Below are positions 3 to 49,338 of a stretch of DNA of 64,000 bases, in pieces. Location of the stretch: assembly GCA_044440125.1 (NCBI GenBank), contig JBITAJ010000012.1:160001-224000 (forward strand). The letters are read 5' to 3'. Position numbers and translations under genes: made by a program. Numbering within the stretch: the first letter of the stretch is position 1; each line of letters begins with the position of its first letter. The DNA is from Sedimentisphaeraceae bacterium JB056 (GTDB taxonomy: Bacteria; Planctomycetota; Phycisphaerae; Sedimentisphaerales; Sedimentisphaeraceae). The notes beneath the pieces were generated by a model, which saw nothing but the letters and a program-made list of their open reading frames with translations, searched no databases and was not told the origin of the DNA.

Positions 3-1124
3 GATGACAGTGCCTACAGTATGTGCTGGTATTATCTCAATATTGGTACGGCAAGCAATAAACATCCTGGAATGATGTGTTTGGCGACCAGTGGCTACAG
101 ATTGCCGCCGGTTGTTATAGATATTGCTCTTGATGTTGCCGGAAGAGGAACATATGAAACGTATTCAAGAAGGCCCGGTTTGAATCTGATTCCAAGGCCC
201 GAAGGAGTTGCGACTGATACAAATGTGCTCGACCCTGATTACGGCGGAATTTTAAGATACACCTATGCAACGCCGGAGTATGTGATCGGAACAAGTATGC
301 TGGAAAACAGGCCGCAGGAGGATTGGACGGGTATAAGCTGTCAGAATCGCTGGCATGGTATTATATTCAGCATAGATAAGGATGCGAGGATTTTCCCGCA
401 ATGTGAGGGGCTCCCTCTTGATTATGCCAAGACATACAATCAGCAGTGGTCGGTTCAGAATAAGTCGACCCTGATCGCACAGAAGCTTAGAACCAGCAGC
501 CATACCGGTGATATGAGGGTTTATTTTTCCGGTGGTTCCAATATGATAATTTACGAAGAAGATGGATGGGTTTTCGGAAGGCTTACAAATGCCTTTGCCG
601 CAGTCCGTCCGGCATGGGGTACTTACAGTTGGGATGATGCAAATTGGATCCGTTTCAGTGACCCATACGCTCCGGCGATAATAGAGGTTGCCCCAAGCTC
701 TGATTTTTCAAACGTATTCAGTCTGTTCAAGGCAGAGGTTAAGTCTCACGTTCCGGTTGTTTCTAATGATGTGTTGACTTATGAGGGTTTGGGTGGTTCG
801 GGAACTTTTACTTTTTACACTAATTCGACGCAATTGCCAGAGATTAACGGCCAGACAATAGACCTTCAACCTGAGTTTACATTCAGCAGTCCGTTCATTG
901 CGGAAGAATTTGACAGTGGTTTGGTTACTATAAAGAAGGGCAGCAGAGAAGCTGTTTTTAACTTTGATCTTGCAGCAACAGGTTTTTGCGGCGAGTGGGG
1001 ATATTTTGGTTTTGACATTAATAAAGACTGCGTTGTCGATCTATTGGATTATTCCTTGCTGGCGACGCAATGGGCACAGTGTTCGCATCCGGCTTGGGCC
1101 GGTTGTGTAAATCCTGAGAATTGA
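3..1124 (+). CDS. SENH-family paralog 1 (5'-truncated by window edge), C-terminal half plus one dockerin-like motif
   Basis: Frame is open to the window edge (DDSAYSMCWYY matches the paralog at 37204). Has HPG, QNRWHG, YNQQWSVQ, GDMRVYF and a C-terminal DINKDCVVDLLD..W motif. Confidence 0.85.
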   Translation, partial: DDSAYSMCWYYLNIGTASNKHPGMMCLATSGYRLPPVVIDIALDVAGRGTYETYSRRPGLNLIPRPEGVATDTNVLDPDYGGILRYTYATPEYVIGTSMLENRPQEDWTGISCQNRWHGIIFSIDKDARIFPQCEGLPLDYAKTYNQQWSVQNKSTLIAQKLRTSSHTGDMRVYFSGGSNMIIYEEDGWVFGRLTNAFAAVRPAWGTYSWDDANWIRFSDPYAPAIIEVAPSSDFSNVFSLFKAEVKSHVPVVSNDVLTYEGLGGSGTFTFYTNSTQLPEINGQTIDLQPEFTFSSPFIAEEFDSGLVTIKKGSREAVFNFDLAATGFCGEWGYFGFDINKDCVVDLLDYSLLATQWAQCSHPAWAGCVNPEN

Positions 1125-1141
1125 TCTTTTTTGGAGATGAT

Positions 1142-3841
1142 ATGAAATTAGTATTGACTCTTTTATCTGTTACAATAATAAGCTCTTCGCTTTTTGCTCT
1201 TACTGACCAGGAGCTTAATGCGGTGCTCGATGGATTTGAAGCCAGACGTGATTCGATGCTTTCTTCACAGGTTTCAAGTCCGTATCCTTCAACCAATTAT
1301 CCTGAAGACGAAAATGTTGGCGGGTATGTTTGGAACAGGCAGGGATTTGCTCTTTCGGCATTGTATCTCAATACGCAATTAGCAGAGGCTAATCAGGCCA
1401 TAATCGATGCATGTAATGCGGAAAAAAATGAGCCCGCTGTTTACGATGAGAGTTTTCACTGGCGCGGGAATGTGTATTACAGGATATATAAATATTTCAA
1501 CAGCAATAGTGACTATTTCCCCGGCAGACTGACGCCGGCTGCAGAAGCGGCTATATGCGACATATTCTGGAACTGGGCGAAATATAAATCAGTACTGACT
1601 GATGCGGATTATTCACAGACAGATACGTGGCTTTACTGGGGCAGTGAAAACCACGATGCTATGCGTAAGAGCAGTTGTTGGAGTGCGGCGGATATCTTGA
1701 AAGATGTTCCTGCTTATCAGAATCTTACCTTTGATGACGGCGGCACTGCTGCACAACATTATGATGCCTGGACAGCATACTTTAAGAAGTATCTTACCGA
1801 GCGAGGTAAGAAGGGTTTACTTTTAGAGCTTGGCTCGCATACCTATCCCAAATATACGGTTCAGGGCTGGTATAATTTTTACGATTTTGCCGGCGATGAA
1901 GATCTAAGTATTCTTAGCGGTAAGTTACTTGATGCATGGTGGGCCGATTATGCACTTAATCAGTTTAACGGTGTTCGCGGCGGTGCAAAGATGAGGGTTT
2001 ATCAGGATGTCGCAACTTCAGGTCTTTCTGATGGAGCTCTTGGCATGTGCTGGTATTATCTTGATATCGGTACTGCGAAAAGCCGCCATCCTGGCGTGAT
2101 GTGTCTGGCAACAAGTGCTTACAGGCTTCCGCTTGTCGTGATGGATATTGCTCTGGATGTTGATGGCAGAGGAACTTATGAAAGCTATGAACGTCGTCAG
2201 GGTTTGCGCGATCAGTCAAAAGAAGATGATATTGAGGAAATAGGCATTGATGCTGAAACTCCGGGTATATTAACCTATGCATATCACAAACCTGAGTTTA
2301 TTTTAGGCAGCGGTATGTGGAATAAACTTCCAATGGATAGCTGGTCTCCTGTGAGCGCTCAGAACAGATGGGTTGGTGCAATCTTTTCCGTAGATGTAAA
2401 CGCGAGAATATTTCCTCAATGTGTTGGGCTTGTCAACGATAAGACATACAACCAGTATTGGAATGTTCAAAATAAAGGCACGCTCATAACCCAGAAACTT
2501 ACTACAAGCACTCAATCTGGAGATATGCGGGTCTATTTCTCCGGCGGCTCAAATATGATAATTTATGAAGAGGATGGCTGGATATTCGGAAGGCTTACAA
2601 ATGCTTTTGCCGCGGTTCGTCCTGCCTGGGGAACATACAGCTGGGATGATGCGAACTGGATCAGATTCAGCGATCCATATGCTCCGGTTATTATGGAAGT
2701 TGCGGCAAGCTCTGATTTTTCAAACGTATTCAGTCTGTTCAAGGCAGAGGTTAAGACGCATGTTCCAACAGTTGATGCTAATGGTGTTCTTACGTATACG
2801 GGGCTACTTGATTCGGGAACTTTTACATTCTACACTCAATCAACGGATCTGCCTGAAATAAACGGCCAGCCTGTGGACCTTGCACCTTCAAAGACTTTCA
2901 ACAGTCCGTTTATGAATGAAGACTGGGATAGCGGTATTATAAATGTTACAAAAGACGATAGAAGCTTGACGATTGATCTCAACTACGATCAAGAGGTTAC
3001 CTGTCAGCCGGTAACATACGACCTTAATGATGATTGTCTTGTTGATAGCGGCGACTTGGAAATTCTTGCCGCAAATTGGCTCGAGGATATTTCTTTCGAA
3101 CCGGTGCAGCAGTCTTTCGTTGATAGTAGCGGAGTTTTAGGGTTATGGCATCTTGAAGCAATAACTCCCGATAGCACTCAGGATTTCTTCAATGATGATG
3201 ATTCTGCCAACTCAGGTAGAAACAACGATTTGGGTATATGGGCAGGCGGTGCTCCTTATGTGAGTGTTATTAATGACGGCAAGTTTGGAAATGCCGTTGA
3301 TATCAATTACAGCGCAGACAGTGTATACCTTCTTTTAGCAGGTAACTGGGATCCGCTTGATACGACGTTTGCTTTCCGCGGATGGATAAGGCTTGGCGAT
3401 GAAGGAGATACGGGCGGATATCTTGCCCACGTTTATGACAGGGTTTATTTATACTGTAATACTACGACGCTTACGTTTAATGTTACAGATGGCGTTGATA
3501 ACGTAATGATAACTGCTGCCCTCGATGATGTTTCCCAGTGGCAATATGTTGAAGCGATTTATACGGCAACAGATATAACGTTAAAAACGAATATTGAAAC
3601 TGTCACTGATGCCTCTATCGGTCCGATATCAGTTAGGCCCGATAAACTCGGTTTCTATATTGGAAGTAGAAAAAATGCAAATAGATTTGTCGGACAGATG
3701 GATGAGATAAGAATCTCAACGGCTGATGAAATCGCTTGTGATGATTTTGCTGTGTTGACAGGTGATTTGAATATTGATTGTCAGGTTGACAATGGTGATC
3801 TGTCTGTGATTGCGCAGCATTGGCTTGAAATCGTTGAGTAA
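1142..3841 (+). CDS. Secreted SENH-family paralog 2 with a LamG-like domain between two dockerin-like motifs
   Basis: ATG 1142 after GGAG; signal peptide; WGSENHD, ELGSHTYPKY, GVRGGAKMR; tail GLWH...FVGQMDEIRIS bracketed by DLNDDCLVD and DLNIDCQVD. Confidence 0.85.
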   Translation: MKLVLTLLSVTIISSSLFALTDQELNAVLDGFEARRDSMLSSQVSSPYPSTNYPEDENVGGYVWNRQGFALSALYLNTQLAEANQAIIDACNAEKNEPAVYDESFHWRGNVYYRIYKYFNSNSDYFPGRLTPAAEAAICDIFWNWAKYKSVLTDADYSQTDTWLYWGSENHDAMRKSSCWSAADILKDVPAYQNLTFDDGGTAAQHYDAWTAYFKKYLTERGKKGLLLELGSHTYPKYTVQGWYNFYDFAGDEDLSILSGKLLDAWWADYALNQFNGVRGGAKMRVYQDVATSGLSDGALGMCWYYLDIGTAKSRHPGVMCLATSAYRLPLVVMDIALDVDGRGTYESYERRQGLRDQSKEDDIEEIGIDAETPGILTYAYHKPEFILGSGMWNKLPMDSWSPVSAQNRWVGAIFSVDVNARIFPQCVGLVNDKTYNQYWNVQNKGTLITQKLTTSTQSGDMRVYFSGGSNMIIYEEDGWIFGRLTNAFAAVRPAWGTYSWDDANWIRFSDPYAPVIMEVAASSDFSNVFSLFKAEVKTHVPTVDANGVLTYTGLLDSGTFTFYTQSTDLPEINGQPVDLAPSKTFNSPFMNEDWDSGIINVTKDDRSLTIDLNYDQEVTCQPVTYDLNDDCLVDSGDLEILAANWLEDISFEPVQQSFVDSSGVLGLWHLEAITPDSTQDFFNDDDSANSGRNNDLGIWAGGAPYVSVINDGKFGNAVDINYSADSVYLLLAGNWDPLDTTFAFRGWIRLGDEGDTGGYLAHVYDRVYLYCNTTTLTFNVTDGVDNVMITAALDDVSQWQYVEAIYTATDITLKTNIETVTDASIGPISVRPDKLGFYIGSRKNANRFVGQMDEIRISTADEIACDDFAVLTGDLNIDCQVDNGDLSVIAQHWLEIVE

Positions 3842-3863
3842 AGATATTTAGGAGTAGGATTTG

Positions 3864-5303
3864 ATGACCAGGACTTTTTTTTTGAAAGCCTTTTTGATTC
3901 TTTTCGTTTGTGGATTGACTGTTGCTGATATTAAGCTGCCTTCTGTGATAGGCAATAATATGGTTCTTCAGCAAAACAGTGATGCTTCTATCTGGGGATG
4001 GGGCAATGCCGGTGAGAAGGTGACTGTCGCCGGAAGTTGGCATAAAAAGATTTATTCAGCGATTGCTGACGAAGATGGCAAGTGGTCTGTTAAAGTTCTG
4101 ACTCCGAAAGCCGGCGGGCCTTACACACTGACAGTAAAAGGTGATAATCTAATCACTTTGAAAAATATTATGATCGGTGAGGTTTGGCTTTGCGGCGGAC
4201 AGTCTAATATGGCCATGACTTTTTACAGAGAGAAAAAGGCAGGCGATAAAACTATTGTTTACAAGATTGATAATCATGAGCAGGAACGTCTGGCAGCGGA
4301 TTATCCAGATATCAGAGTTTTACGTGCAAAAGCTAATCCCTGGCATTCAGAGACGCCGGTTGATGATGTGAGAGGTTCATGGCAGGTATGTGCTCCTGAT
4401 ATGGCGGAGAATATGCCGGCAGTGCCGTATTTTTTTGGCCGCGAGCTGCATAAAAAGCTTGATGTCCCTGTCGGGTTGATTGTAAACGCCGTACCGGCGA
4501 CCCGTGTTGAGCCATGGACTAACGCGGCAGGTTTTGATTCAGTACCGGAGCTTAAATCGATAGCCTCCGAGCTTAAAAAAGAAGACACTGTGCTTAAAGA
4601 CAAACCGGGTGTTCTTTACAATACCCTGGTTCATCCATTGGTCCCTTATGCGATTCGCGGAGCCATTTGGTATCAGGGTGAATCAAATCTTGGCGATCAC
4701 ATGATCTATTACCACAAGATGAGGGCGTTGATAAACGGCTGGCGAAAGGTCTGGGGACAGGGCGATTTCCCTTTCTATTTTGTGCAATTGGCGCCATGCG
4801 GCGGATTCTATGAAGATATGCAGTTGCCTAAATTGTGGGAAGCACAGGCAGCGGCACTTGATATAAAGAACACGGGTATGGCACTCAATAGCGATCTTAG
4901 CGATTTAGATTTGCATCCCGCTAATAAACAGGATGTAGGCAAACGACTGGCACAGTTGGCATTGGCTAAAAATTACGGTGTCAAAGGTATTGTTTATGAT
5001 GGACCTAGTTATAGATCAATGGAGGTTCAGGATAATAAAATTCGTATCAGCTTTAATAATGCCGGGGGCCCGCTTCAATCGAGAGACGGCAGGCCGCTGG
5101 ACTGGTTTACTATAGCAGGTGATGATAAAGTTTTTATTCCTGCTAAGGCAAAAATTGACGATGATGGAGTGGTGGTTTACAACGAAAAGATTACTCGACC
5201 GGTTGCCGTTCGTTTTGGTTGGAAAAAAGAAGCGCAGCCTAATCTGATGAATGCAGAAGGTTTGCCGGCTTATCCGTTCCGCACTGATGACTGGTCGTTA
5301 TAA
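3864..5303 (+). CDS. Sialate O-acetylesterase-like (SASA/DUF303) SGNH carbohydrate esterase, secreted
   Basis: GEVWLCGGQSNM, WYQGESN, LHPANKQDVGKRLA and NLMNAEGLPAYPFRTDDW motifs; signal peptide. Confidence 0.9.
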   Translation: MTRTFFLKAFLILFVCGLTVADIKLPSVIGNNMVLQQNSDASIWGWGNAGEKVTVAGSWHKKIYSAIADEDGKWSVKVLTPKAGGPYTLTVKGDNLITLKNIMIGEVWLCGGQSNMAMTFYREKKAGDKTIVYKIDNHEQERLAADYPDIRVLRAKANPWHSETPVDDVRGSWQVCAPDMAENMPAVPYFFGRELHKKLDVPVGLIVNAVPATRVEPWTNAAGFDSVPELKSIASELKKEDTVLKDKPGVLYNTLVHPLVPYAIRGAIWYQGESNLGDHMIYYHKMRALINGWRKVWGQGDFPFYFVQLAPCGGFYEDMQLPKLWEAQAAALDIKNTGMALNSDLSDLDLHPANKQDVGKRLAQLALAKNYGVKGIVYDGPSYRSMEVQDNKIRISFNNAGGPLQSRDGRPLDWFTIAGDDKVFIPAKAKIDDDGVVVYNEKITRPVAVRFGWKKEAQPNLMNAEGLPAYPFRTDDWSL

Positions 5304-5556: not shown

Positions 5557-7155
5557 ATGTGCAGGGTTAAAGTAATTATTACGGTAATTTCTATGTTATT
5601 AACCGAATTTGTAATTGGAAGTACTATTGTCAGGGACTCGAATGTTTATGAAACACTCTCTCCGATACGCCAGGGTATAAAAGGTGTAACACCTTTCTGG
5701 AATGAATATGCCTTTCGATTTATTTATGTTCCGTCATTCAATTTTGAACCTGTTGATGGCGCTATAAAATATAAGTTTACTGCTACAGCTACAGATGGGG
5801 AAATGTATGAATTCTGTGCTCAACGTCCTGATGCACTGCTTACTCCGATATGGTTAGAACTTCCGATAGACCAGATAAAATTGAAGGTTGAAGCGATTGA
5901 TGCTGATGGCAAGATTATTTCTTTGGCAGGTGAGAGGGTGTTTGAGAAAGCTGCCCCCTATAATGGACCCTATAGGCAAGAGAAATATGACTATTCCAAA
6001 AGTGCCAGAAGGGCTATGGATGAATTCTTTAAGCTTGATATTGTAAAAGACTGGGGTAATACGGGTAAGCCATCGCCTGAGTATCAATACCGAAACAGGT
6101 ATGCGGCCAAAATGATGAGTGCTGTTGTTGATGGCGCAGCGCTTTATGCAAGTATGGAACCCAAGCCCGCTAATATTGATGAAGTCTTAAATATTGGTAA
6201 AGCAGCAGCAGATTATCTGCTCTCAATCCATTATCCTTCCGGCTCCCCGGTTGAAAATTTTCCGCCGACATACTACGGTATGGAAAAGGAAGGACACATG
6301 GATGTTAATAATTGTATGATTACAGAGGCAGCGAATGCAGGTCGTGCCTATCTTGATTTGTATAAAGCGACAGGTCTAAAAAAGTATCTTGAGGCCGGGC
6401 ATAAAATTGCGGATACCTACAAGAAATTGCAGCTTGCAAATGGAACGTGGTATCTTGTTGTTGATATAAAAACAGGCGAGCCTATTTTTAATAATTACGC
6501 CAACCCGCAGAGTATTATCAATTTTCTTGATGTTCTTATAAAAGATTACGGGCGTGATGATTTGGTTAGGGTTGTTAATAAAGCGGTCAAATGGACAATA
6601 GCTAATCCATGTAAGACATTCAACTGGCAGAATCAGTTTGAGGATATGGTGCCGGAGAAAGCGTATAAAAATTTATCCCGTGGCGAGGCGACAAGCTTTG
6701 CGCAGTGGCTCTTGCAAAATGCGGCAAAAGACCCTGTGTATATCGAGATGGCTAAAGAGATCATAATGTATTCCGAAGACCAGTTTGTTGTATGGTCAAA
6801 TCCGCCGATCAATACAAATAGACAAACTGAATATGTTTTGTTCCCTGCCGAATATTATTCAACGGACAAATGGATCATGCCTTGTGTTTGTGAGCAGTAT
6901 TTGTTTTGGCAGCCTGTTAATGCAAGTTCAGTAAGTATGATATCTGCTTACAGAAGTGCTTATGAACTTACCGGCGAAGAAATTTATATGGCAAAAGCTA
7001 AAGATTTGGCTGATTCAATAGTGTATGCTCAGGAAGAATATCACAGTGGCCGTTATCTTACATATCTTACGTCTGTTGAAAGGGATTACTGGATGAACTG
7101 TACTGTTGTATCTGCACGTGTAATGTATGCTTTTGGTGAGTTTGTTAAGAGATAA
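5557..7155 (+). CDS. Secreted protein of unknown function, probable alpha/alpha-barrel (six-hairpin glycosidase-like)
   Basis: 532-aa ORF with hydrophobic N-terminus; repeated helical hairpin motifs AYLDLYKATGLKKYLEA..LQLANGTW and AYELTGEEIYMAKAKDLADSI. Confidence 0.6.
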   Translation: MCRVKVIITVISMLLTEFVIGSTIVRDSNVYETLSPIRQGIKGVTPFWNEYAFRFIYVPSFNFEPVDGAIKYKFTATATDGEMYEFCAQRPDALLTPIWLELPIDQIKLKVEAIDADGKIISLAGERVFEKAAPYNGPYRQEKYDYSKSARRAMDEFFKLDIVKDWGNTGKPSPEYQYRNRYAAKMMSAVVDGAALYASMEPKPANIDEVLNIGKAAADYLLSIHYPSGSPVENFPPTYYGMEKEGHMDVNNCMITEAANAGRAYLDLYKATGLKKYLEAGHKIADTYKKLQLANGTWYLVVDIKTGEPIFNNYANPQSIINFLDVLIKDYGRDDLVRVVNKAVKWTIANPCKTFNWQNQFEDMVPEKAYKNLSRGEATSFAQWLLQNAAKDPVYIEMAKEIIMYSEDQFVVWSNPPINTNRQTEYVLFPAEYYSTDKWIMPCVCEQYLFWQPVNASSVSMISAYRSAYELTGEEIYMAKAKDLADSIVYAQEEYHSGRYLTYLTSVERDYWMNCTVVSARVMYAFGEFVKR

Positions 7156-7187: not shown

Positions 7188-10100
7188 GTGTGTATCAAAT
7201 TAGTTTTAGGTATGTTGTTGTTTTCAGCTGGATGGGTATATTCTTTTACGGCTCAGGAGTTGATTGAAATAAGAGATGGCTTTAACGCTCGTCGTGATGC
7301 GGCAATGGAACAAATGCGTGGTGAACCTTTGGTTATTGCTAAAAAGCTGCCTCCTCTCTCGCCGGGGCGAGGCCCATACACACGCAGCTTTGCCTGGTCG
7401 ATCACTGATTTCGCGATGAAGTCGTTATGGCTCAATGATCAGGTTGATACTGCCAACGAAGCACTCAAAACTTATAGTGAGTATTATATAAGCGACAAGA
7501 TCGGTCGCAATGACCGTGACAGTTTTTATTGGGCATCGGACTGTATTTGCAGAATCGTTGAGTTTTACGGACGTAACGGCTCGATAGCTCCGGGACGGCT
7601 TACGGCTGACACTGAAGATGCGATCCTTGATATGATGTGGCAGTATGCCAGAGAAAACTCAAAGGTTGATTCACTTGATGAGGTTTACGATGTGTACGCA
7701 AAGTGGGATTGGGGCAAAATGGGTGACGTGCCGTTGCCGGCGTCAGCAAATGTTGAACGTTCGAAAACATGGGATGTCATTGAATCTGAAAATCATCATA
7801 TGATGAAGCTTTCAACCCTGTGGCACTTTTCCAAACTATTGAGCAAATCAACTAAGTATCAGAAATTGAAATACGATGATGGGTTTGTAGCAGACGAACA
7901 TTATGCCGCATGGACTGAGTATGCGAAGGAATATTGCATCCAGAGGGCAAAGAAGGGTCTGTTTGTTGAAATGGCTGATGAAGGCTACAATGCGCAAACG
8001 CTCAAATTTCTTTACAACTATTATGACTTTGCCGATGATAAGGATTTGAGCAAGGTTGCCGGTAATCTGCTTACACTTTACTATGCCTCGTGGGCACAGG
8101 AGCAGATAGACGGAGTACGCGGCGGTGGTAAGAGCCGTATGTACGGCAAGAAAGACCACAGAGGTACGGGTCGCATAGGTGAATACATGTGGTTTTATGC
8201 GTCGATGGGTGAGCAACCGAAGGTTTCAGCGGAATTTTTCACTGTTATTACCAGCAGTTACAGGTTGCCGCTTATTGTTATAGATTTGGTATTGGATGTT
8301 CAGGGTAGGGGCGATTATGAGTTGTGGGAACGGCCTTTGGGACTTGCCAGGGATGGTTTTTATACCAATCCGCACTACAAGCTGCGAACTGATTATGGCG
8401 GTATCGTCCGTTACAGCTACTGTACCCCGGATTTTATAATGGGTCTGCCTATGGTCGAAGCAAGGCCGTTTGAGGACTGGGTGCTGATAAGCAGTCAAAG
8501 CCGTTGGCAGGGTGTTATTTTTGAAGGTGATCAGCTTGCGAGGATCTATCCGCAATGCAAACCTGATGATGGCAGTGTTTCGTTCAATCAGCAGTGGGGT
8601 GTGCAGAAGAAGGGAACCATGATCACGCAGCGATTGAGTGAGTCAATGGCTAAAGGTGCCGGTGCAATGCGGGTATGGTTTGGAAGCGATGGTTTAAGCG
8701 AACCTGTGGAAAATGACGGCTGGGCATTCTCGCAGTCTAAAGGTGCTTATGCCGCAGTTCGCCCTGCACGCGGAGGGTATTCATGGCAGCCATCTGATGT
8801 TTTACCTATAAAAGGGCGATGGATGACATTGGCTGATACCTTCTCTCCTGTTATAATTGAGGTTGCACAAAGAAGCGATTTTGCCGATTACAACGCGTTT
8901 CAAACGGCGGTAAAAGCACTGCCTTTACTTTGGAAGGGTGAGCAGCTCAACTTTACAGGTCTTGGCGGCCATACGTTTACTTTTTATGCCGATTACTCAC
9001 ATAGCCCAAAGATCGACGGCAAGCAGGTTGATTATGCACCTGAAAACGTTTTTAAGAGTCCATTCATTAATTCCAAATGGGATAGCGGAATCGTTACAAT
9101 AACAAAAGAGGGCAGAGAGCTTGTTCTTGATTTTGTCGATACTACCGGCGCTCTCAATGATGAAAAGATCAAGGCTTTGAAAGATGGTTTCGATGCAAGA
9201 AGCAAGAGTGTGCTTGAAAGTCAGGTGGCTTCGCCTTATCCGGGTATTGACACTTTTGTCTGGAACAAACAGGATTTTGCTCTTTCGGCATTGATGCTCA
9301 ATACAAGGCTTGACGATGCCAACAGGGCAGTAATTGAAGCTTGTGATTATATCCTCGAAAATGAAAAATGTCCTGTGGAGTGCAGTCTGCATTGGAATAT
9401 AAATTTGTTTTTCAGAATCTATGAATATTTCAATGCTGAAAGTTCGCATTATCCGGGCAGACTAAGCTCTGAAGCAGAGAAAAAAATAATCGATGTTATG
9501 TGGTTCTGGCTTGAGAGCAATTCGAAGATTTCCGATGCGGATATTGCAAATTATAAGACATGGCGGATATGGGGAAGTGAAAATCATGATGGGATGAAGA
9601 ATACCTCAAATTGGTCGGCGGCTAAAGTGCTTTCGCGTTTGCCGCAGTATCGTGATAAGAAATGCAAGGACGGCAAGAGTGTTGAAAAGCATTACGCCGT
9701 TTGGACGGATTACTTCAAGGAATATCTCAGGGAACGGGCCATAAGAGGCGGGCTTATTGAGGATGGAGCTCATTCGTATTCAAAGTATACGCTTCAGGGC
9801 TGGTATAACTTCTATGACTTCGCCGATGATCCGGTACTTCAAAAACGTGCTGAATATTCGCTTGATCTTTGGTGGACTTGCTGGGCTCTTGAACAGATTG
9901 AAGGGTTAAGGGGGTCTGCAAAGTCGCGTACTTACCATGATGCCTTGCAGCCATTCAGGGATAATGCCTATGGGATGTGCTGGTTCTATTTTGGTATTGG
10001 TACTCCAAGAAGCAAGCATCCGGGAATTATGTGTTTGGCCGCAAGTGAATATAAGCCTGCCGATATTATATATGATATCGCTTTGGATATCGACGGCAGA

Positions 10101-10919
10101 GGTGAATATGAATTTTATACGAGGAAGCTTGGTCGTGTGAGCGTGCCCGTTGAGGTTGATGGACACAATCCGATTTATATTTTTGATACCGATAAAGGCG
10201 GGCTTGTAAAATATACTTATGTCTGTCAGGATTTTGTGATGGGTAGCTTTCTGCAGAAAAAATTGAATCATGATACAGATTGGGCCTGGATAAGCGATCA
10301 GAATCGCTGGAGCGGGGTTGTGTTTAAGGGAGGTAAAGATGCGGCGGTTATTCCTTCATGTGATGCGATGAGAAGTAATAACCGTACTAATTACAATCAG
10401 TATATTGGTGTGCAGAAAAATGGTGCAATGTTGGTTCGCAAGATATTTGAAGGTTCTGTTGCTGTAGGTGATATGCGTGTCTATTTTGGAAACGATATGA
10501 ATGCGAGGCTGTTTAATGATACGTTTGTCGCAGCATCATGTGAGAATGGTTATGTCTTTGCAAAACCAGCATGGGGAAAGCTCGAGATGGTTGATGATAA
10601 CTGGTATCGGATGAGTGACTCCAAGTCGCCGCTGATTATAGAGGCTACAGGTAAAGAGGGTTCGATGGAAGAGTTTGTCAGAAAAGCTGCCGCTTCTAAT
10701 GTTGTTGTTGATAAGGATAAAACAAAAGCTGTGTACAAAACTTTTGATGGACACAAACTTTGTCTTTATTTTGATGATAAGCTTTCGGAAATCGATGATA
10801 AGCCAATTGAATTATACCCTGACTTTACATACAAAAGCCCTTATCTAAATTCAAAATGGGGCGATGGGAAAATAGTTATTCAAAAAGGTGAAAGAAAAAA
10901 GATATTAGATTTCAATTAA
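7188..10919 (+). CDS. Secreted tandem fusion of two SENH-family domains (paralogs 3a and 3b)
   Basis: Two full motif sets: ESENHH/EMADEGY/GVRGGGKSR and GSENHD/EDGAHSY/GLRGSAKSR; junction LVLDF-VDTTG-ALNDEKI near 9135-9150. Confidence 0.85.
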   Translation: MCIKLVLGMLLFSAGWVYSFTAQELIEIRDGFNARRDAAMEQMRGEPLVIAKKLPPLSPGRGPYTRSFAWSITDFAMKSLWLNDQVDTANEALKTYSEYYISDKIGRNDRDSFYWASDCICRIVEFYGRNGSIAPGRLTADTEDAILDMMWQYARENSKVDSLDEVYDVYAKWDWGKMGDVPLPASANVERSKTWDVIESENHHMMKLSTLWHFSKLLSKSTKYQKLKYDDGFVADEHYAAWTEYAKEYCIQRAKKGLFVEMADEGYNAQTLKFLYNYYDFADDKDLSKVAGNLLTLYYASWAQEQIDGVRGGGKSRMYGKKDHRGTGRIGEYMWFYASMGEQPKVSAEFFTVITSSYRLPLIVIDLVLDVQGRGDYELWERPLGLARDGFYTNPHYKLRTDYGGIVRYSYCTPDFIMGLPMVEARPFEDWVLISSQSRWQGVIFEGDQLARIYPQCKPDDGSVSFNQQWGVQKKGTMITQRLSESMAKGAGAMRVWFGSDGLSEPVENDGWAFSQSKGAYAAVRPARGGYSWQPSDVLPIKGRWMTLADTFSPVIIEVAQRSDFADYNAFQTAVKALPLLWKGEQLNFTGLGGHTFTFYADYSHSPKIDGKQVDYAPENVFKSPFINSKWDSGIVTITKEGRELVLDFVDTTGALNDEKIKALKDGFDARSKSVLESQVASPYPGIDTFVWNKQDFALSALMLNTRLDDANRAVIEACDYILENEKCPVECSLHWNINLFFRIYEYFNAESSHYPGRLSSEAEKKIIDVMWFWLESNSKISDADIANYKTWRIWGSENHDGMKNTSNWSAAKVLSRLPQYRDKKCKDGKSVEKHYAVWTDYFKEYLRERAIRGGLIEDGAHSYSKYTLQGWYNFYDFADDPVLQKRAEYSLDLWWTCWALEQIEGLRGSAKSRTYHDALQPFRDNAYGMCWFYFGIGTPRSKHPGIMCLAASEYKPADIIYDIALDIDGRGEYEFYTRKLGRVSVPVEVDGHNPIYIFDTDKGGLVKYTYVCQDFVMGSFLQKKLNHDTDWAWISDQNRWSGVVFKGGKDAAVIPSCDAMRSNNRTNYNQYIGVQKNGAMLVRKIFEGSVAVGDMRVYFGNDMNARLFNDTFVAASCENGYVFAKPAWGKLEMVDDNWYRMSDSKSPLIIEATGKEGSMEEFVRKAAASNVVVDKDKTKAVYKTFDGHKLCLYFDDKLSEIDDKPIELYPDFTYKSPYLNSKWGDGKIVIQKGERKKILDFN

Positions 10920-10936
10920 TGTGATTGTTGAATATT

Positions 10937-12670
10937 ATGCAAAGACGTAATTTTATAAAATTGATGGCCGGTACTGCTTTTTTAGGAGCGGGCGGATGCA
11001 GCATGAATCTTGGCAGAGAAGATGGGGCCGTTCGTAACAGACCGAATGTGATCTTGTTTTTGACTGACGATCAGGGCTACAGTGATGTTGGTTTCAATGG
11101 CAACAAGATTGTGAAGACACCGAACATCGATAAGTTCGCTTCGCAAGGAACTGTATTTGATCGTTGTTATGTATGCCCTGTTTGTTCACCGACTCGCGCG
11201 AGTCTTATGACCGGCCGTTATCATTTCAGGACCGGTGTCCTCGATACGCAGGGGGGCGTCTCAATGCTCAAGCCAGGTGAGGTTACCATTGCCGAAGCCT
11301 TGAAAAGTGCGGGTTACAAAACCGGCATGTTCGGCAAATGGCACCTGGGGGATAACTGTCCTACACGTCCGATAGATCAGGGATTCGATCATTCGCTTAC
11401 TCATGTTGGCGGAATGATCGGCGCTCCTTACAACCCGCTTGATGCCAACAGTTATTTCGAACCCGTCTTGCTTGAAGATGGCATCGAAAAGAAATTCAGT
11501 GGTTACTGTTGTGATATTTTTGCCGATGCGGCGATAGATTTTATTGATGCAAATAAAAATGACCCTTTCTTTATTTATCTTGCACCAAATACGCCGCACC
11601 ATCCATTGACGGTTCCGGAAAAATATGCTGAGCCTTACAAAAAAGCAGGGCTCAGTGAGGAAACCTCTCGTTTTTACGGCATGATTACCAATATTGATGA
11701 TAATTTCAAAAAGCTGACTGATAAGCTTAAGTCGTTGAATATTCTTGATAACACCGTGATAATCTTTCTTGGTGACAACGGTACTTCGAGTCTGCATAAG
11801 CAGGATGATCTCTGGGAATGCGGTCTGCGTGGCCGTAAGACATACGTGTATGAAAACGGTATTCGCGTGCCTATGTTTATTTGTATGTCAAATAATATGA
11901 AAGCAGGGCTGAGGGTAAATGATATTTGTGACGGCATAGATATCATGCCTACGATACTCGACCTTTGCGATGTTCAGAAGCCGGCAAAAGTGAATTTTGA
12001 CGGCATAACCCTTGCCCCATTTATAAGAGACGACAAGGCTAAGCTGCCTGATCGAAATGTTTATATTCAGTGGCACAGGGGGGCTAAGCCTGACAAATAC
12101 CGTAACTTCGCGGTCATAACAGATAAGTATAAGCTTGTTCAAAGCGGGGGACGAGCCGGTCTTGATTTTGATGCTTCAGAGATAAAATACGAACTTTATG
12201 ATATTAAGGAAGATCCTTTCGAGAAAAATGACATCTCGGACGAGCACCCACATATTGTTGCCCGGCTAAAGAGTGATTACGATAGATGGTATGAAAGTGT
12301 GGTTGCCGCAAGCAATTTTACTCCGACAAGAATTTTTATTGGCAGTGAATGTGAAAATCCCGTAATGCTTACCCGTCAGGACTGGCAGGGCGGCGGGCTC
12401 TTTGACGGCGATTACGGCTTTTACGACCTTGATATTAAAACTTCCGGAGATTATCGGATAACCTGCCGACTTACCGATATGCTTCACGAAACGCATACTG
12501 TAACATTGAAAATAGACGATCAGGTATATAAGAAAGATATCCTATATGCTGAATCCCAGTGCCGTTTTGATAGTATTGAGTTGCAAGAGGGCCCGGCGAG
12601 TCTTGAAGCCTGGGTTGATATGGATGGCAAAAAGTATGGTTTCAGGTTTATAACTATAGAGAAACTTTAA
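10937..12670 (+). CDS. Formylglycine-dependent (S1) sulfatase, Tat-exported, probable lipoprotein
   Basis: RRNFIK Tat motif, AGGC lipobox-like, PNVILFLTDDQG, CSPTRASLMTG, GKWHLG, GDNG, YENGIRVP. Confidence 0.93.
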   Translation: MQRRNFIKLMAGTAFLGAGGCSMNLGREDGAVRNRPNVILFLTDDQGYSDVGFNGNKIVKTPNIDKFASQGTVFDRCYVCPVCSPTRASLMTGRYHFRTGVLDTQGGVSMLKPGEVTIAEALKSAGYKTGMFGKWHLGDNCPTRPIDQGFDHSLTHVGGMIGAPYNPLDANSYFEPVLLEDGIEKKFSGYCCDIFADAAIDFIDANKNDPFFIYLAPNTPHHPLTVPEKYAEPYKKAGLSEETSRFYGMITNIDDNFKKLTDKLKSLNILDNTVIIFLGDNGTSSLHKQDDLWECGLRGRKTYVYENGIRVPMFICMSNNMKAGLRVNDICDGIDIMPTILDLCDVQKPAKVNFDGITLAPFIRDDKAKLPDRNVYIQWHRGAKPDKYRNFAVITDKYKLVQSGGRAGLDFDASEIKYELYDIKEDPFEKNDISDEHPHIVARLKSDYDRWYESVVAASNFTPTRIFIGSECENPVMLTRQDWQGGGLFDGDYGFYDLDIKTSGDYRITCRLTDMLHETHTVTLKIDDQVYKKDILYAESQCRFDSIELQEGPASLEAWVDMDGKKYGFRFITIEKL

Positions 12671-12736
12671 GTTATGAAAAAGGGATATACGGAAAATTGA
12701 TTTAACGGAATTTGAAAAAAATTGCAGAGGAAGTTT

Positions 12737-14632
12737 ATGAAACTATATTTATCAAATATTTCAACCGCATTAGCGTTGGTTTTCGTTTTATCACTGAATG
12801 TATCGGCAGTTGAGAAAAAAAGACTTGATCAATACGAGGCGGTTGTCTTTTCGGGATATTATAAAACCGCGGAACAATTCGAGGCTTTTGCCGTGGAGGC
12901 AAAGGAATTGGGTGCCACTCATGTGATTATCAGTTCCGGTTTGCCATTGGGAATGTGGAAGTATGATACCCCGGGTGATCCATACCCGGCGTGGCTGGAG
13001 CACCAGGTAGGGCTTTTAGAAATATTTCCACCGCAGGCGATTCGTGAGCATATTCCCCAATCACGGACACAGGCTCTCCAGTGCGAGTTAAAAAGTCGCA
13101 GTGAGATACTTCGTCGTCTTGGGCTGCGAGCGATGTTCGGCAACAATGAGCCCCAAGTCGTGCCGGAGGGCATTTTCGAGGATCATCCGTTATGGCGAGG
13201 CCCTCGGGTTGACCATACACTTCGTTCACGGGTGCCTCGTTTTGCGATGAACGTAGATAACCCGGATGTTCTTGCCTTGTATAGAGAGGCGGCGGAAAAA
13301 CTTATTGCCAACTATCCTGAAATCGATCTTTACAGGTTAGTTACTACTGATGCCGGTTCCGGGTTTGACTGGAGTCCGGGGTTGTATCCCGGCATTAACG
13401 GCAACACCCTGTATAAGGATCGTCCAATGTTCGATCGAGTCAACGGCTTTTTACAGGCATTGCGGTCGGGTGCCCGTGCAAGCGGAGGCAGCCTGGATAT
13501 CAATGTTGTTCCCATTAAGCCATATTCATGGATGATACCAAGCTTTGAGAATTACTCGCAGTATGCCTTGCGTTTCGATGAAGGGCTGGCGATGGCAAAT
13601 CTTGAAGGCTCTGATGCTTCGCCGTTCATGTCAAATGCTGGGATTTCGTGGAATTGGAATTTCTTTTTCCCTGTGGCAGGTTTAGAGCAGCCCGTATCTG
13701 TGTTGCGTCAATTGGTCTCCGCCGCTGACAGCCTGGCACCGCGGCTGATGATGACGCTCGACCCCTGGACCGGAGATTTGTATCCGACGCTTTTTGAGCG
13801 TTTCTGGAAGGAGCCTGCAAAGAACGAAATTGAACAATTGGAGTTGCTGCGTGAAATAGCTGCCCGGCGTGTTGGCGATAAACACGCCGACAATCTGTTA
13901 AAAGTGTGGCTGGCAACCGACGATGCTCTCAAAAGCGCGAGCGTCTTGAAGATTCACATGCCGCTGATGACCGGAGGCGTGCACCAGCGTTGGCTGATAA
14001 GGCCTCTGGTGCCTATGCCTGAGCTTTTAACACCTCAGGAAACGCGATATTACGACCAGTATGTTTTTCAGGCATTGGATGAGGGCCATGCCGCAAATTA
14101 CGCTGATCTGCAGGCTACGCAGGTTTATGGCGGCTGGGAAGGTAAGTTTTTCGTTGAGCAGATCACTTTCAATGTTAATAATGATCTAAATCGTGCCCGC
14201 AAATATCTGGCTCCGATCATTGAAGATCTTTCAGGGCCGATGAAAAAGAACTACCAATTGCTGGATCTTCGTCTGCAAGCGGCTAACTGCATTGTTAATA
14301 ACGTGCGGCATTTCGCAAGCTACCAGGGACAATTGGATCGCGTTAAAGATTTGCAGATAAAACCCCAGTACCATCCGGTACTGGGCACACAAAGCAATTG
14401 GGATAGAACTCTCATTATGAACACGGCACGCGAGGAGCTTGACAATACCGCTCTTTTGATCGACATTCTGCAACGAACCTCAGAGACGGTCATTATTACT
14501 GCTGAAACACCTGAAGAAGAACGTATTCGGATGTTAGGCCCTGAATTGATCTGGCAACTGCAAAAAAAGTTAAAGATCATGAATTCGCACTGGAATGATT
14601 ACGATCGCATCTTCACCCGACCCAATCCATAG
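12737..14632 (+). CDS. Unknown-family protein (ELGATH/PNP family), exported copy
   Basis: ATG after GAGGA; signal peptide; colinear paralog of 22110..23924 (ELGATH, GDPYxAW, NEPQV, RGPRVD, TTDxGSGF, C-terminal PNP). Confidence 0.8.
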   Translation: MKLYLSNISTALALVFVLSLNVSAVEKKRLDQYEAVVFSGYYKTAEQFEAFAVEAKELGATHVIISSGLPLGMWKYDTPGDPYPAWLEHQVGLLEIFPPQAIREHIPQSRTQALQCELKSRSEILRRLGLRAMFGNNEPQVVPEGIFEDHPLWRGPRVDHTLRSRVPRFAMNVDNPDVLALYREAAEKLIANYPEIDLYRLVTTDAGSGFDWSPGLYPGINGNTLYKDRPMFDRVNGFLQALRSGARASGGSLDINVVPIKPYSWMIPSFENYSQYALRFDEGLAMANLEGSDASPFMSNAGISWNWNFFFPVAGLEQPVSVLRQLVSAADSLAPRLMMTLDPWTGDLYPTLFERFWKEPAKNEIEQLELLREIAARRVGDKHADNLLKVWLATDDALKSASVLKIHMPLMTGGVHQRWLIRPLVPMPELLTPQETRYYDQYVFQALDEGHAANYADLQATQVYGGWEGKFFVEQITFNVNNDLNRARKYLAPIIEDLSGPMKKNYQLLDLRLQAANCIVNNVRHFASYQGQLDRVKDLQIKPQYHPVLGTQSNWDRTLIMNTAREELDNTALLIDILQRTSETVIITAETPEEERIRMLGPELIWQLQKKLKIMNSHWNDYDRIFTRPNP

Positions 14633-14825: not shown

Positions 14826-17483
14826 ATGAAGAGAGCGTTAATGATTTTGATGATAGGATTATGTTTTGTTGTTACATGTTTGAATGCGGCAGAAGTTAAA
14901 TATCTGGATTGTTATGAAGAAGAGGCTCGTCTTTTTGGTGTCGCTGATTTGCAGAATAATATAGATATCGATCTGGAAAAGCGGCTTCAGGCGCCTTATT
15001 ATTTTGTCGCCGGGCATAAGAGTTATAAAACACCTGGTTTCGAATATGATTATTGCGATAAGCAAAATGGTGATTTCAGTGTAACCTTTAATCCGGCGGA
15101 ATCTTCGAATTCACCCAGATTTGGCTTTATGACAAATCTTTGGGGACATTACTATCCGCTTGATGAGAATTTCAGCCTGAAGTTTTATTTGAAAACCGAG
15201 AATATTACGGATGCTCAGAATAGCTGGAAGGTTCGATTTGTTGATGCCGATGATAATACTGCGGTATCTGTTTTGAATGATACTGACACTAAAGGACAGT
15301 GGAAAGAATTCATATTGCCTCTCAATGAATTGGAAAAAGAAGGGTCTTTTGATTTTAAAGCGATAAAGTTATGCGAGTTTGAGACAGCAGAGTTTCCGAA
15401 GAATGCTTTATTGAAATTTGATTTTGTGCATTTTGCAGATAACAAGGGTGTTGTTATCGGTATTACCGACAAGACCATCGACCAGCGAATATTTGAGCAG
15501 AAGGCTACAAAGGACATTCGTATACAAAAGGCTTTCGCTGTATCGGCAAAGAAAGCTCATCAACCGGTAATAAGTGCTTTTGCGATGCTTTATCTGGGTG
15601 AGAATCTGGAGAAGGCTAATCAAATTCTGCGTGAAGATTGTTTGGGAGAGGGACAAGGTAATCCATGGGATTTATTACGTACCCCACTCTATTGCAGGTC
15701 GTATTTGCTGTTTTCGAGTCGTTGCGGTAAATTCTCCGGCCGTCTTGAGAAAGAAACCGAGAAGGTGCTTCTGGATACAATCTGGAATCGTACAAAAATC
15801 AAGAACGATATTTATTGGGCGCGTCAAAGTACATGGTATCTTGACGGCAGTGAAAATCATGACCTGAATGCAAAAGCATCTAACCTTGTTTCTTCCTTTA
15901 TCTTTATGAACGAGCCGGAGTATAAGGATCGTGTCTATCCCGATTACGGTTTTGGCGGCGGCTATCATTACGGCCATGCCGGATATTACGGCAAGGGAGT
16001 CGATATTGAATCACGACACGGCGGCGGCAGGGCAAACCTTTCAGATGGAAAAGAATATACGGCCAAAGACCATTACAAGGCGTGGCTTGGCTTTATGAAG
16101 GAATATTTCCGTGAGCGTGCTAAGTATGGATTCTTTGTGGAAAATTCCTCATGTATTTACAGCAAGCATACAATGAATATGATTGATCTGGTTTATGCAT
16201 ATTCGGGTGATGATGAGTTGAGAAGCATTGTTGATGATTTTATGACACTCTATTGGGCGGATTGGGTTCAGACCGGTATTGCCGGCATATCGGGTGGTCC
16301 AAAGACAAGGCATCACAAAAGTGTTGGCAGTTATGGGGCTAATAAGGGGATGGTCGGTTTTTATCTTGGCGGACCGGCTGATGGCGGCATATGGGGCTAT
16401 TGGAATAATATCAACGGTTATGAAATGCCCGAAGTGGTTCAGATGATGGCACTCGATAGAGAGGGTATGGGGAGATTTGTTTACCGCAGCCGGGGGATTG
16501 GCGAAGCGCAGCCAAATCAGCCGCGACCTATGGGTACAGAGCGAACACTTGTGATTAAGCCGGAATCGAAATTTCTTAAATATTCTTATGTAACACCTCT
16601 ATATACTTTGTCAACACAAATGGATCATCCGTGGGCTGTTCATTCTCATTTGAGTAAGGCGGCTCGCTGGCATGGAATGACTGTAACCGAGGATGCAAAT
16701 GCCAGAGTCGTACCTGTTGTATTACCGATTGAACCTGATTTTAATGGTAAAACAAAACTTTACGGCATGGACGGAATGTATAAAACTGTGCAGGATAAGA
16801 ATACTCTTATAGTTCAGAGAAGCCGGTCGTTTTCGGAGGTTAATCCCGATTGGTATCCGCTTTATAAGCAGCGTACAGATCAGGGTATTTATGTAGGCAG
16901 TGCATGGGATGAAAAAGAAGAAAATGGCGGCTGGATATTCCTGCGAAAGGGAGATGTGTATGCTGCAGTACGGGTTGTGCTTCGTGATGCGGATTATGAA
17001 GAAAAGAAAAAGCTTAAAACCACCGGTACTCAGGTAACTTTCCATCACCCTGAAGATGATGCAAAGGTGAAGCTCTCTGATAAGGCTTACAGTTGGAGTG
17101 ATAATCAGGAGATTATTGTACTCAATGATCGTTATTCTCCGGTTATTATTCAGGCTGGGGACCAGGATCACTATGGAAGTTTTGAAACATTTATGACAGA
17201 TATTCAAAATGCTCCTATCGCGTTGTATAAAACTGTTGTGCCGACATTCAATATCCTTGCATTCACTTCACCGGAAGAAGGTGCTCCGGAGATGGTATTC
17301 AATGCGGCAAACAATGAAATACCTATGCTTGACGGTGAGTATATCAGCTATGAGCTGCCCAAGACTTTTGACAGCCCATATATTCAGTCAGAGTTTAGGA
17401 GCGGGAAGATTGATATTGAATATGACGGTGAAAAACTTAATCTTGATTTTTCTGACGGTCCGTGGTGGGCTTTCTGGAAATGA
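14826..17483 (+). CDS. Secreted SENH-family paralog 4 (subfamily B) with N-terminal CBM-like domain
   Basis: Signal peptide; DGSENHD, ENSSCIY, GISGGPKTR, QMDHPWAVHSHLS. Confidence 0.85.
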   Translation: MKRALMILMIGLCFVVTCLNAAEVKYLDCYEEEARLFGVADLQNNIDIDLEKRLQAPYYFVAGHKSYKTPGFEYDYCDKQNGDFSVTFNPAESSNSPRFGFMTNLWGHYYPLDENFSLKFYLKTENITDAQNSWKVRFVDADDNTAVSVLNDTDTKGQWKEFILPLNELEKEGSFDFKAIKLCEFETAEFPKNALLKFDFVHFADNKGVVIGITDKTIDQRIFEQKATKDIRIQKAFAVSAKKAHQPVISAFAMLYLGENLEKANQILREDCLGEGQGNPWDLLRTPLYCRSYLLFSSRCGKFSGRLEKETEKVLLDTIWNRTKIKNDIYWARQSTWYLDGSENHDLNAKASNLVSSFIFMNEPEYKDRVYPDYGFGGGYHYGHAGYYGKGVDIESRHGGGRANLSDGKEYTAKDHYKAWLGFMKEYFRERAKYGFFVENSSCIYSKHTMNMIDLVYAYSGDDELRSIVDDFMTLYWADWVQTGIAGISGGPKTRHHKSVGSYGANKGMVGFYLGGPADGGIWGYWNNINGYEMPEVVQMMALDREGMGRFVYRSRGIGEAQPNQPRPMGTERTLVIKPESKFLKYSYVTPLYTLSTQMDHPWAVHSHLSKAARWHGMTVTEDANARVVPVVLPIEPDFNGKTKLYGMDGMYKTVQDKNTLIVQRSRSFSEVNPDWYPLYKQRTDQGIYVGSAWDEKEENGGWIFLRKGDVYAAVRVVLRDADYEEKKKLKTTGTQVTFHHPEDDAKVKLSDKAYSWSDNQEIIVLNDRYSPVIIQAGDQDHYGSFETFMTDIQNAPIALYKTVVPTFNILAFTSPEEGAPEMVFNAANNEIPMLDGEYISYELPKTFDSPYIQSEFRSGKIDIEYDGEKLNLDFSDGPWWAFWK

Positions 17484-17530
17484 AAATATTAAATAAGTTA
17501 ATTGGAATTATATTTATTCGGAGTTATGGA

Positions 17531-25797: not shown

Positions 25798-25810
25798 GGT
25801 TAGGTTTTTT

Positions 25811-31850: not shown

Positions 31851-31883
31851 TATGCTATATTGAAAATAAATAAGGACTTTGTT

Positions 31884-33047: not shown

Positions 33048-33065
33048 TTTTAAGGAGATATAAAA

Positions 33066-33872: not shown

Positions 33873-33925
33873 AGTATAAGCAAAATTCGACTGTGTTTTT
33901 TTATTTTTTTCAAAGGAGATTTTTT

Positions 33926-40841: not shown

Positions 40842-40861
40842 AACCAGTAAGGATAGTTATT

Positions 40862-49188: not shown

Positions 49189-49338
49189 AACTTTTTTGTG
49201 CTGACATGGTCTATATTGTGAATTTTGTTTGATTTTGTATTATGAAACTATTTTGAACGCAAAACTTTACCGAACTTGTTATATTTTAAAAGCATTGTGA
49301 CGTATATAAATGGTGTTTTAATTTTAAGGAATTTGAAA

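Follow-up and report, generated by a model that had tools for sequence, protein, structure and literature searches.

Family genes of the locus

The 64,000-nt stretch analysed here, called the window below (C12:160001-224000 of the 4.5-Mb genome of Sedimentisphaeraceae bacterium JB056), carries a cluster of genes for large proteins that share a domain of about 600 residues. Ten large open reading frames (ORFs) contain 11 complete copies of this domain, and a twelfth copy is truncated at the window start. The domain is predicted to have the two-domain architecture of many polysaccharide lyases (PL), and the Asn-His pair of its SENH motif falls on the position at which these enzymes neutralise the substrate or hold a catalytic His. 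We propose that the proteins probably form a new family of exported lyases.

All of the window's family genes lie on the plus strand. The truncated copy (ORF 3-1124) comprises the C-terminal 373 aa of a gene that is whole in the genome (C12:159142-161121) and has retained SENH, E..Y and Arg. Paralog A (1121-3841, 906 aa) has a signal peptide, the family domain (approximately aa 1-640), a dockerin-like motif and a LamG module; the codons of SENH occupy nt 1643-1654 and those of ELGSHTY 1826-1846, and GVRGGAKMR closes with an Arg encoded at 1994-1996. Paralog B (7188-10919, 1243 aa) is a tandem pair of family domains, with SENH at 7785-7796 and 9576-9587, EMADEGY at 7968-7988 and EDGAHSY at 9759-9779. 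In paralog C (14826-17483, 885 aa), an N-terminal domain of about 215 aa with no significant Pfam match precedes a family domain that bears an insertion between SENH (15849-15860) and ENSSCIY (16140-16160). Paralog D (17462-20137, 891 aa as listed) likewise starts with an N-terminal domain, with a weak CBM30 match (E 0.057), before its family domain (SENH 18542-18553, ETHSPTY 18821-18841). Paralog E (20238-22106, 622 aa; SENH 20730-20741, EVESPGY 20913-20933) and paralog F (23959-25797, 612 aa) consist of one family domain each. Both structure models were made from paralog F, and its numbering is used throughout: S166-E167-N168-H169 is encoded at nt 24454-24465, E227...Y233 at 24637-24657 and R283 at 24805-24807. 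Paralog G (25736-27892, 718 aa as listed; SENH 26318-26329, EVASPGY 26600-26620) has an insertion in the family domain, and paralog H (28001-31681, 1226 aa; SENH 28445-28456, EIASPGY 28634-28654) joins the domain to LamG modules. Paralog I (37204-39969, 921 aa; SENH 37681-37692, EIASNGY 37864-37884) continues after the domain with a dockerin-like motif and a CBM9-like module. Finally, paralog J (40835-43468, 877 aa) has an N-terminal domain without a Pfam match and then a family domain with an insertion, in which SENH starts at nt 41843 and ERAAPGY follows about 95 residues downstream.

Signal-peptide-like N-termini, judged by eye, were present in 10 of the 10 window family proteins. ORFs 17462 and 25736, as listed, begin inside the genes before them (17462-17483 and 25736-25797); inner Met codons that open signal-peptide-like sequences (MKLTSIM... 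and MKKTVYL...) are the likelier starts. The insertion of paralogs C, D, G and J is rich in Gly, Tyr and His and adds 32-36 residues to the stretch between SENH and E-x5-Y. The N-terminal domain of about 215 residues is common to C, D and J, and not to G; the CBM30 match in D is its only Pfam lead. In paralog H, an insertion of about 210 residues lies within the beta-sandwich, ahead of the LamG modules, and splits the hidden Markov model match into residues 32-479 and 690-819.

Conserved motif of the window domains

The sequence-only reading of this DNA had started from nt 1640-1995, which is in frame with ORF 1121-3841 and translates to GSENHDAMRK...ELGSHTY...NGVRGGAKM; the codon of the closing Arg (1994-1996) straddles the end of that stretch. 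It had described a SENH motif kept in every complete domain, an E-x5-Y string downstream, a Gly-rich segment closing in Arg, and a helical N-half followed by a beta-rich C-half. All four descriptions were borne out. SENH was found in 11/11 complete domains, the E-x5-Y strings matched exactly in each of them, and a G-x-R-G-G-x-K-x-R stretch was present in all 11. In the DSSP assignment of the paralog F AlphaFold model, helices extend as far as about residue 335 and strands begin at 343. The spacing from N to Y is 65 residues in six domains, 67 in one and 97-101 in the four insertion-bearing domains. Identity of the window paralogs to the reference domain is no higher than 29-61%, but all of them share the residues S, E, N, H, D, R, G, E, Y, Y, L, G, R, R, G and R without variation, and the conservation of the motif is therefore far beyond chance.

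A large family absent from domain libraries

When 1.84 billion cluster representatives were searched with the family profile, 2762 matched at E<=1e-3, which gives the family at least that many clusters at 50% identity, and 708 matched at E<=1e-30. A word-index search found 756 relatives. Among the 120 of these that were listed with source names, all were called 'hypothetical protein' except one, whose name reflects a fused GDSL esterase, and the members of the family clusters were likewise unnamed. None of the 30 nearest clusters of the ESM Atlas had a Pfam match or any name but 'hypothetical protein'; the closest ones with a name (Lyase_8, heparinase II/III and Ulvan_lyase_N) scored 0.75-0.78, too low to count. 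To judge from the source names and taxa, the family occurs in Planctomycetota, Verrucomicrobiota, Bacteroidota, Acidobacteriota and Paenibacillaceae. It is sparsely distributed in the first of these phyla, with a match at E<=1e-20 in 9 of 201 sampled Planctomycetota genomes, the present genome included. A scan with a single family protein recovered three related loci only.

The core domain had no Pfam match in the 11 window proteins at E<=0.1 or in the 14 further genome copies at E<=1, no NCBIfam match, and no match at E<=10 in a profile search of all PDB sequences. Our literature searches found no description of the family. These results agree with the earlier proposal of a new family.

Among 85 diverse members with a mean column identity of 25%, N168, E227, Y233, R283 and P587 were invariant. 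In a larger set of 264 domain instances, conservation was 99.2% for N, 95.5% for H, 99.2% for E167, 96% for R219, 99.6% for E227, 100% for Y233, 99.6% for R283 and 96.6% for R405. The full N-H-E-Y-R set was present in 252 of the 264 domains; ten others change H alone (to I, L or R), and two are degenerate.

Predicted fold and structural neighbours

The AlphaFold2 model of paralog F, calculated from an 85-row alignment, had a mean predicted local distance difference test score (pLDDT) of 96.3 and a predicted TM-score (pTM) of 0.94. It shows the lyase-type arrangement of an N-terminal (alpha/alpha)n toroid (residues about 55-335) and a following antiparallel beta-sandwich (343-612). Foldseek gave 59 matches in the PDB at E<=0.001, and the 50 that were listed are all two-domain lyases (PL8, 12, 15, 17, 21, 33, 35 and 39) or human dermatan sulfate epimerase 1 (DS-epi1), the latter having the best E value (6hzn, 1.5e-7). 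The TM-scores of these listed matches were only 0.2-0.42. When the Foldseek matches were aligned with VIA-align, the heparinase III structure 5jmd reached Z 12.2 over 430 aligned residues with a root-mean-square deviation of 6.7, followed by 4mmh (11.4), GAGase VII (11.4), Alg17c (10.7), DS-epi1 (10.4), Atu3025 (10.3) and chondroitinase AC (1cb8, 10.3). A search of 48,161 chains that did not depend on Foldseek again had two-domain lyases or DS-epi1 in its 19 best rows, with Z 8.3-12.1, and single-domain toroids came lower (PL5 at 7.6-7.9, GH105 at 7.7, GH76 at 7.6 and GH88 at 7.4). These structural matches support the earlier idea of an (alpha/alpha)-toroid plus beta-sandwich lyase fold, here that of the PL8/12/15/17/21/33/35/39 lyases and DS-epimerase 1. 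Judged from the model, the relationship to the lyases is distant, but the architecture and the domain order are those of lyases, and the family appears remotely related to the toroid-plus-beta-sandwich lyases, closest to PL12 heparinase III.

The Asn-His pair at the neutraliser position

A truncated model of paralog F beginning at S166 (pLDDT 96.8) was superposed on solved structures. Residues 3 and 4 of this model are N168 and H169, and their partners were read from the first aligned pair, which assumes that the first four aligned residues are ungapped. In 4mmh (PL12) the first pair was 4<->241, which puts N168 and H169 on N240 and residue 241; the latter is His according to the alignment to PL12-like sequences. 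The pair fell on N201/H202 of 4nei (PL17; first pair 1<->199), N186/H187 of 6jpn (PL39; 1<->184) and N336/H337 of 6lja (PL15; 1<->334). Single residues were matched in 3afl (PL15; 1<->308, H311), 2fuq (PL21; 1<->199, H202), 8r6z (PL33; 1<->236, N238) and 6hzn (DS-epi1; 1<->202, H205). PL8 (1rw9, 1<->180, N183) and PL23 (3vsm, 1<->233, N236) were one residue off. The residues matched in the eight structures are the published neutraliser Asn or catalytic His, as given in Table 4 of PMC12088678 and in PMC11848413 and PMC8006597. The earlier suggestion that the Asn-His pair occupies the lyase neutraliser/catalytic position is thus upheld by superposition, and the neutraliser Asn, often with His next to it, at the start of a toroid helix is found in the truncated model as in the lyases.

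A putative catalytic Tyr

In the paralog F model, Y233 stands at the start of the second helix beyond the one with N-H, 65 residues past N168. In the known families, the catalytic Tyr follows the Asn by 53-57 residues (Table 4 of PMC12088678). Alignment by hhalign to a 27-sequence PL12-like profile gave a marginal score, with E 0.0095 for the N-domain and 0.0077 for the full length, and paired SENH with GN(H/W) and G-x3-E-x5-Y with DG-x3-E-L-S-x-x-Y-H. A 4-sequence PL12-like profile gave the same pairing at E 0.018, and a separate run against a 4-sequence PL12-like alignment aligned the E..Y region alone at E 0.11. The hhalign probability against the PL12-like profiles was just 2.6-5%. By alignment, the PL12-like Tyr paired with Y233 corresponds to Tyr294 of 4mmh. 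The sequence-only reading had taken this Tyr as the catalytic Tyr of an E..xY motif: its invariance held in all 264 domains, and its equivalence is weakly backed by the marginal hhalign values (E 0.0077-0.018). Tyr233 may accordingly be the counterpart of the catalytic Tyr of PL12-like lyases.

Comparison with known lyases and the beta-domain

The closest structural match is PL12 heparinase III (Pedobacter heparinus HepC, 4MMH; Bacteroides thetaiotaomicron BT4657, 5JMD/5JMF; 4FNV): the truncated model reaches Z 12.0-13.1 over 309-317 residues, and the full model 11.2-12.2 over 423-430. The domain order is the same, H169 superposes on residue 241 beside the neutraliser N240, and SENH...G-x3-E-x5-Y aligns with GNH...DG-x3-E-L-S-x-x-Y294-H. 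The two groups differ in that the family has no counterpart of the PL12 His424 and no sequence-level membership of PL12 (no Hepar_II_III_N or Hepar_II_III_C match), that its N-to-Y spacing is 65 and not 54, and that it has one more residue between E and Y.

PL15 (Atu3025, 3A0O/3AFL; exoHep, 6LJA), PL17 (Alg17c, 4NEI), PL21 (heparinase II, 2FUQ), PL39 (Dp0100, 6JP4/6JPN) and PL33 (BT4410, 8R6Z) share the two-domain fold at Z 7.2-10.7, and the N-H dyad lies residue for residue on the sites listed above (N336/H337, H311, N201/H202, H202, N186/H187 and N238). In PL12, 15, 17, 21, 33, 35 and 39, a His from a metal-wrapping beta-domain loop is shared, and some have a second Tyr (PMC11848413 and PMC12088678). 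The beta-domain His that these sources give for PL15, 17, 21, 39 and 33 (H531, H555, H413, H406, H405 and H444) is not conserved in the family, and at the sequence level neither are the second Tyr and the structural metal site that several of them have in the beta-domain; the Pfam models of these lyases do not match it. More generally, the catalytic beta-domain His of known lyases (H424, H531, H413, H406, H444, H401 and H405) had no conserved counterpart in the 264 domains; the conserved polar residues of this domain are R348, R374, Y375, S401, Q403, R405, R418, Q438 and Q446.

At the thresholds given above, no Hepar_II_III_N, Hepar_II_III_C, DUF4962 or Alginate_lyase match was obtained for the 11 window proteins or the 14 other copies. 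Hepar_II_III_C itself matches 28 times elsewhere in the same genome, and never in the window. The family therefore does not belong to heparinase II/III, with which the active site had been compared: it is missed by the Pfam models, and it has no conserved form of the beta-domain His in the 'Tyr-His-Asn triplet'.

Since no beta-domain His is conserved, the catalytic centre would be confined to the toroid, as in PL5 and PL8. Catalytic Asn, His and Tyr all come from the toroid in these two families, as proposed here, and their toroid set also includes Arg. PL8 (chondroitinase AC, 1CB8/1RWA; hyaluronate and xanthan lyases) matches at Z 9-11.7 with its neutraliser Asn183 within one residue of N-H. 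The PL8 His is not adjacent to the Asn (His233 and Asn183 in 1RWA, from the available part of PMC12088678 Table 4). The toroids of PL5 (A1-III, 4E1Y; AlgL, 4OZW) match the N-domain at the Z 7.6-7.9 given above, but PL5 is a single-domain toroid without a beta-sandwich, whereas the family always has the C-terminal sandwich. Neither Lyase_8 nor Alginate_lyase of Pfam matches the family.

Human DS-epi1 (6HZN) raises the question of an epimerase, in which the same His and Tyr machinery would invert C5 of uronates within the polymer and leave the chain uncut. It has the lowest Foldseek E value, it matches across both domains at Z 10.4-10.8, and His169 maps onto its His205; small changes are argued in PMC8006597 and PMC11848413 to convert a lyase to an epimerase. 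On the other hand, His205 is the only DS-epi1 active-site residue with an equivalent in the family, which has no DUF4962 match and no conserved counterparts of the His450/Tyr473 pair or of the Mn site (His452/Glu470/Asn481) described in PMC8006597. DS-epi1 is a eukaryotic Golgi enzyme, whereas the family proteins are exported and encoded in catabolic loci with sulfatases, esterases, GH43 and, in Bacteroidota, SusC/SusD, and an epimerase would hardly account for twelve paralogs in one degradative locus. We regard this explanation as improbable.

Copies in the genome, neighbours and fusions

The genome contains 26 family domains in 25 reading frames, 12 of them in the window locus and the rest on contigs C3, C4, C15, C21, C22 and C28. 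N is kept in 24 of the 26 domains, H in 22, and E227, Y233 and R283 in 25 each. One degenerate copy (C12:233151-235013), about 9 kb beyond the window end, lacks all five of N, H, E, Y and R, and another (C28:95245-97869) has lost N and H and nothing else of the set. From their sequences, these two copies are possible pseudo-enzymes. Such losses would fit a non-catalytic glycan-binding or scaffold protein that merely retains a lyase fold. Against this stands the full N-H-E-Y-R set in 252 of 264 domains of a family in which diverse members show 25% mean column identity, and binding modules are already present as separate units (LamG, CBM9 and N-terminal domains without significant Pfam match). 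It also stands against this explanation that three of the eight ORFs called in a Bacteroidota SusC/SusD locus (L084:44-13399) belong to the family; one of the remaining five is without a Pfam match, and the rest hit nothing but SusC, SusD, Por_Secre_tail or Fib_succ_major. A purely non-catalytic role thus seems very improbable, even more so than an epimerase. The order of genes in this locus is SusC, SusD, a small ORF, three consecutive family genes, a Por_Secre_tail protein and a Fib_succ_major protein, and two of the three family genes have an N-terminal Fib_succ_major domain.

In the window, the accessory enzymes of the locus, all on the plus strand, are a SASA-type carbohydrate acetylesterase (3861-5303), a sulfatase (10925-12670) and, between paralogs I and J, a GH43 glycoside hydrolase (39975-40841). 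An operon head on the same strand (31860-37126) consists of a GntR regulator (31860-33047), a prepilin-type N_methyl protein (33066-33872) and a triple-LamG/CBM9 protein (33893-37126), and the same GntR/prepilin-type/LamG-CBM9 head precedes family genes on contigs C15, C21 and C22. The other family loci of the genome adjoin PL12-like genes with CBM96, a DUF4962/Hepar_II_III_C gene and a PF14099 lyase, together with five sulfatases, a stand-alone DUF1961, a deacetylase and the same operon heads. The stand-alone DUF1961 gene (C3:53900-54859; L044:5900-6859) directly adjoins a family gene.

Fusions were found in the relatives as well. Of the 120 listed, ten carry DUF1961 and two a GDSL esterase; among 37 longer relatives, three carry DUF1961 with GDSL, one a CE4 deacetylase, five LamG, 11 PATR repeats and one a beta-helix. 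As DUF1961 is fused to the family in other organisms and adjoins it on C3, the two are probably functionally linked. Three other Planctomycetota genomes have fusions of about 950 aa with an Asp-box/BNR propeller (L032:76-2925, L033:73-2922 and L034:706-3546), which match the family only from the SENH motif onward and keep TENH, E-x5-Y and the Arg. An Acidobacteriota cluster of the ESM Atlas likewise has an Asp-box/BNR propeller fusion. A link to sialic acid, suggested by the SASA esterase, the BNR fusions and a sub-threshold NanM match, was considered and dropped, because folds of these kinds serve as carbohydrate modules in general and the chemistry would not suit the active site.

Several other genes of the window are recorded here as side observations. 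Two unannotated genes (12722-14632 and 22110-23924) encode paralogs of 636 and 604 aa that are 39% identical and are the sole two copies in the genome; they had no match in Pfam, NCBIfam or PDB sequences, and the ESM Atlas points, as no more than a lead, to TIM-barrel glycosidases (GH20, GH67M and GHL6; scores 0.91-0.92). The 532-aa protein of 5557-7155 has a sub-threshold Pfam GH47 match (E 4.7e-4, 19.7 bits against a cut-off of 22.9) and two homologues in the genome, one of them inside a 1178-aa protein (C21:80322-83864) with a Hepar_II_III_C match; on account of that homologue, it is possibly a further toroid of the lyase type. The glycan locus is closely followed downstream by two URO-D-fold genes and a CobW-type GTPase (49276-50373, 57761-58702 and 58709-60067), and one more URO-D gene lies within the C3 family locus.

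Proposed function and its alternatives

Taken together, we propose that these proteins are exported beta-eliminating enzymes of a new family that act on acetylated or sulfated uronate-containing glycans; Asn168 and Arg would serve as neutralisers and Tyr233 as acid (or acid/base), with His169 available as another base. We put the probability of this reading at roughly 55%. The reaction would be a beta-elimination at a uronic-acid residue, in which Asn168, aided by the invariant arginines R219, R283 and R405, would neutralise the C6 carboxylate. Tyr233 would protonate the leaving glycosidic oxygen and, with syn substrates, would also abstract H5. His169 may be the base for the other C5 configuration, like His202 of PL21 and His311 of PL15. 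Unlike in PL12, 15, 17, 21, 33, 35 and 39, no beta-domain His would take part. Acting together, the 12 divergent domains of the locus, the acetylesterase, the sulfatase and GH43 would break down a complex acidic polysaccharide that is acetylated or sulfated and probably comes from algae.

Several results weigh against this proposal. A structural Z of 8-13 is a distant match for a protein of 612 residues. No His besides H169 reaches 85% conservation in the 264 domains, and the same sequences contain no conserved His/Asp/Glu/Asn cluster for a structural metal site in the C-domain. The hhalign score of the real PL12-like profile was 26.4, compared with 21.7 and 22.9 for reversed profiles, and was reached by one of 30 block shuffles; with a heterogeneous 12-sequence profile, the alignment was shifted out of register (E 0.079). 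Because of that misalignment and the marginal score, the equivalence of Tyr233 is given here as a suggestion. GH88/GH105 enzymes are the usual partners that digest lyase products, and none of the 37 longer relatives is fused to one; in the genome they are nearly absent, with four weak matches, two of them over the cut-off and none in the window. Finally, the conservation of E167 and E227 matches that of N and Y, and a hydrolytic mechanism could make use of these two residues.

The last point leads to an alternative in which the lyase fold would carry a glycoside hydrolase or some other enzyme that cleaves glycans without elimination, with Glu167/Glu227 as acid/base and N, H, Y and Arg engaged only in binding an acidic or sulfated sugar. 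The missing beta-domain His, the near absence of GH88/GH105 and the similarity of the N-domain to the single-domain toroids of GH105, GH88 and GH76 are all compatible with it. Every hydrolase was, however, outranked by two-domain lyases in the structural searches, and the toroid-first, sandwich-second order is that of lyases; known toroid hydrolases have the reverse order. In addition, the N-H pair lies exactly at the carboxylate-neutralising position of eight lyase/epimerase structures. The E-x3-5-Y pattern is present in PL12 and PL35 lyases too (Glu242 and Tyr246 are named in PMC12088678). We consider a hydrolase unlikely, though clearly less so than an epimerase or a binding protein. The probability left beyond these four readings belongs to a reaction that we did not foresee.

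Meaning for the family and the organism

If the proteins are lyases, they would add a family to the carbohydrate-enzyme classification, give a function to dozens of genes in the polysaccharide loci of marine and soil glycan degraders, and indicate that a heparinase-type fold can work without the beta-domain His. The analysis pinpoints the residues to mutate (N168, H169, Y233 and R283) and a compact single-domain paralog to express. In its fullest form, which we hold more tentatively than beta-elimination itself, the proposal is that this algae-associated Phycisphaerae genome has 26 copies of a new lyase family with a toroid-only Asn-His-Tyr-Arg centre, without the beta-domain His and metal, and that each paralog may cut a different linkage of a complex acidic algal glycan, acetylated or sulfated, without a known depolymerase.

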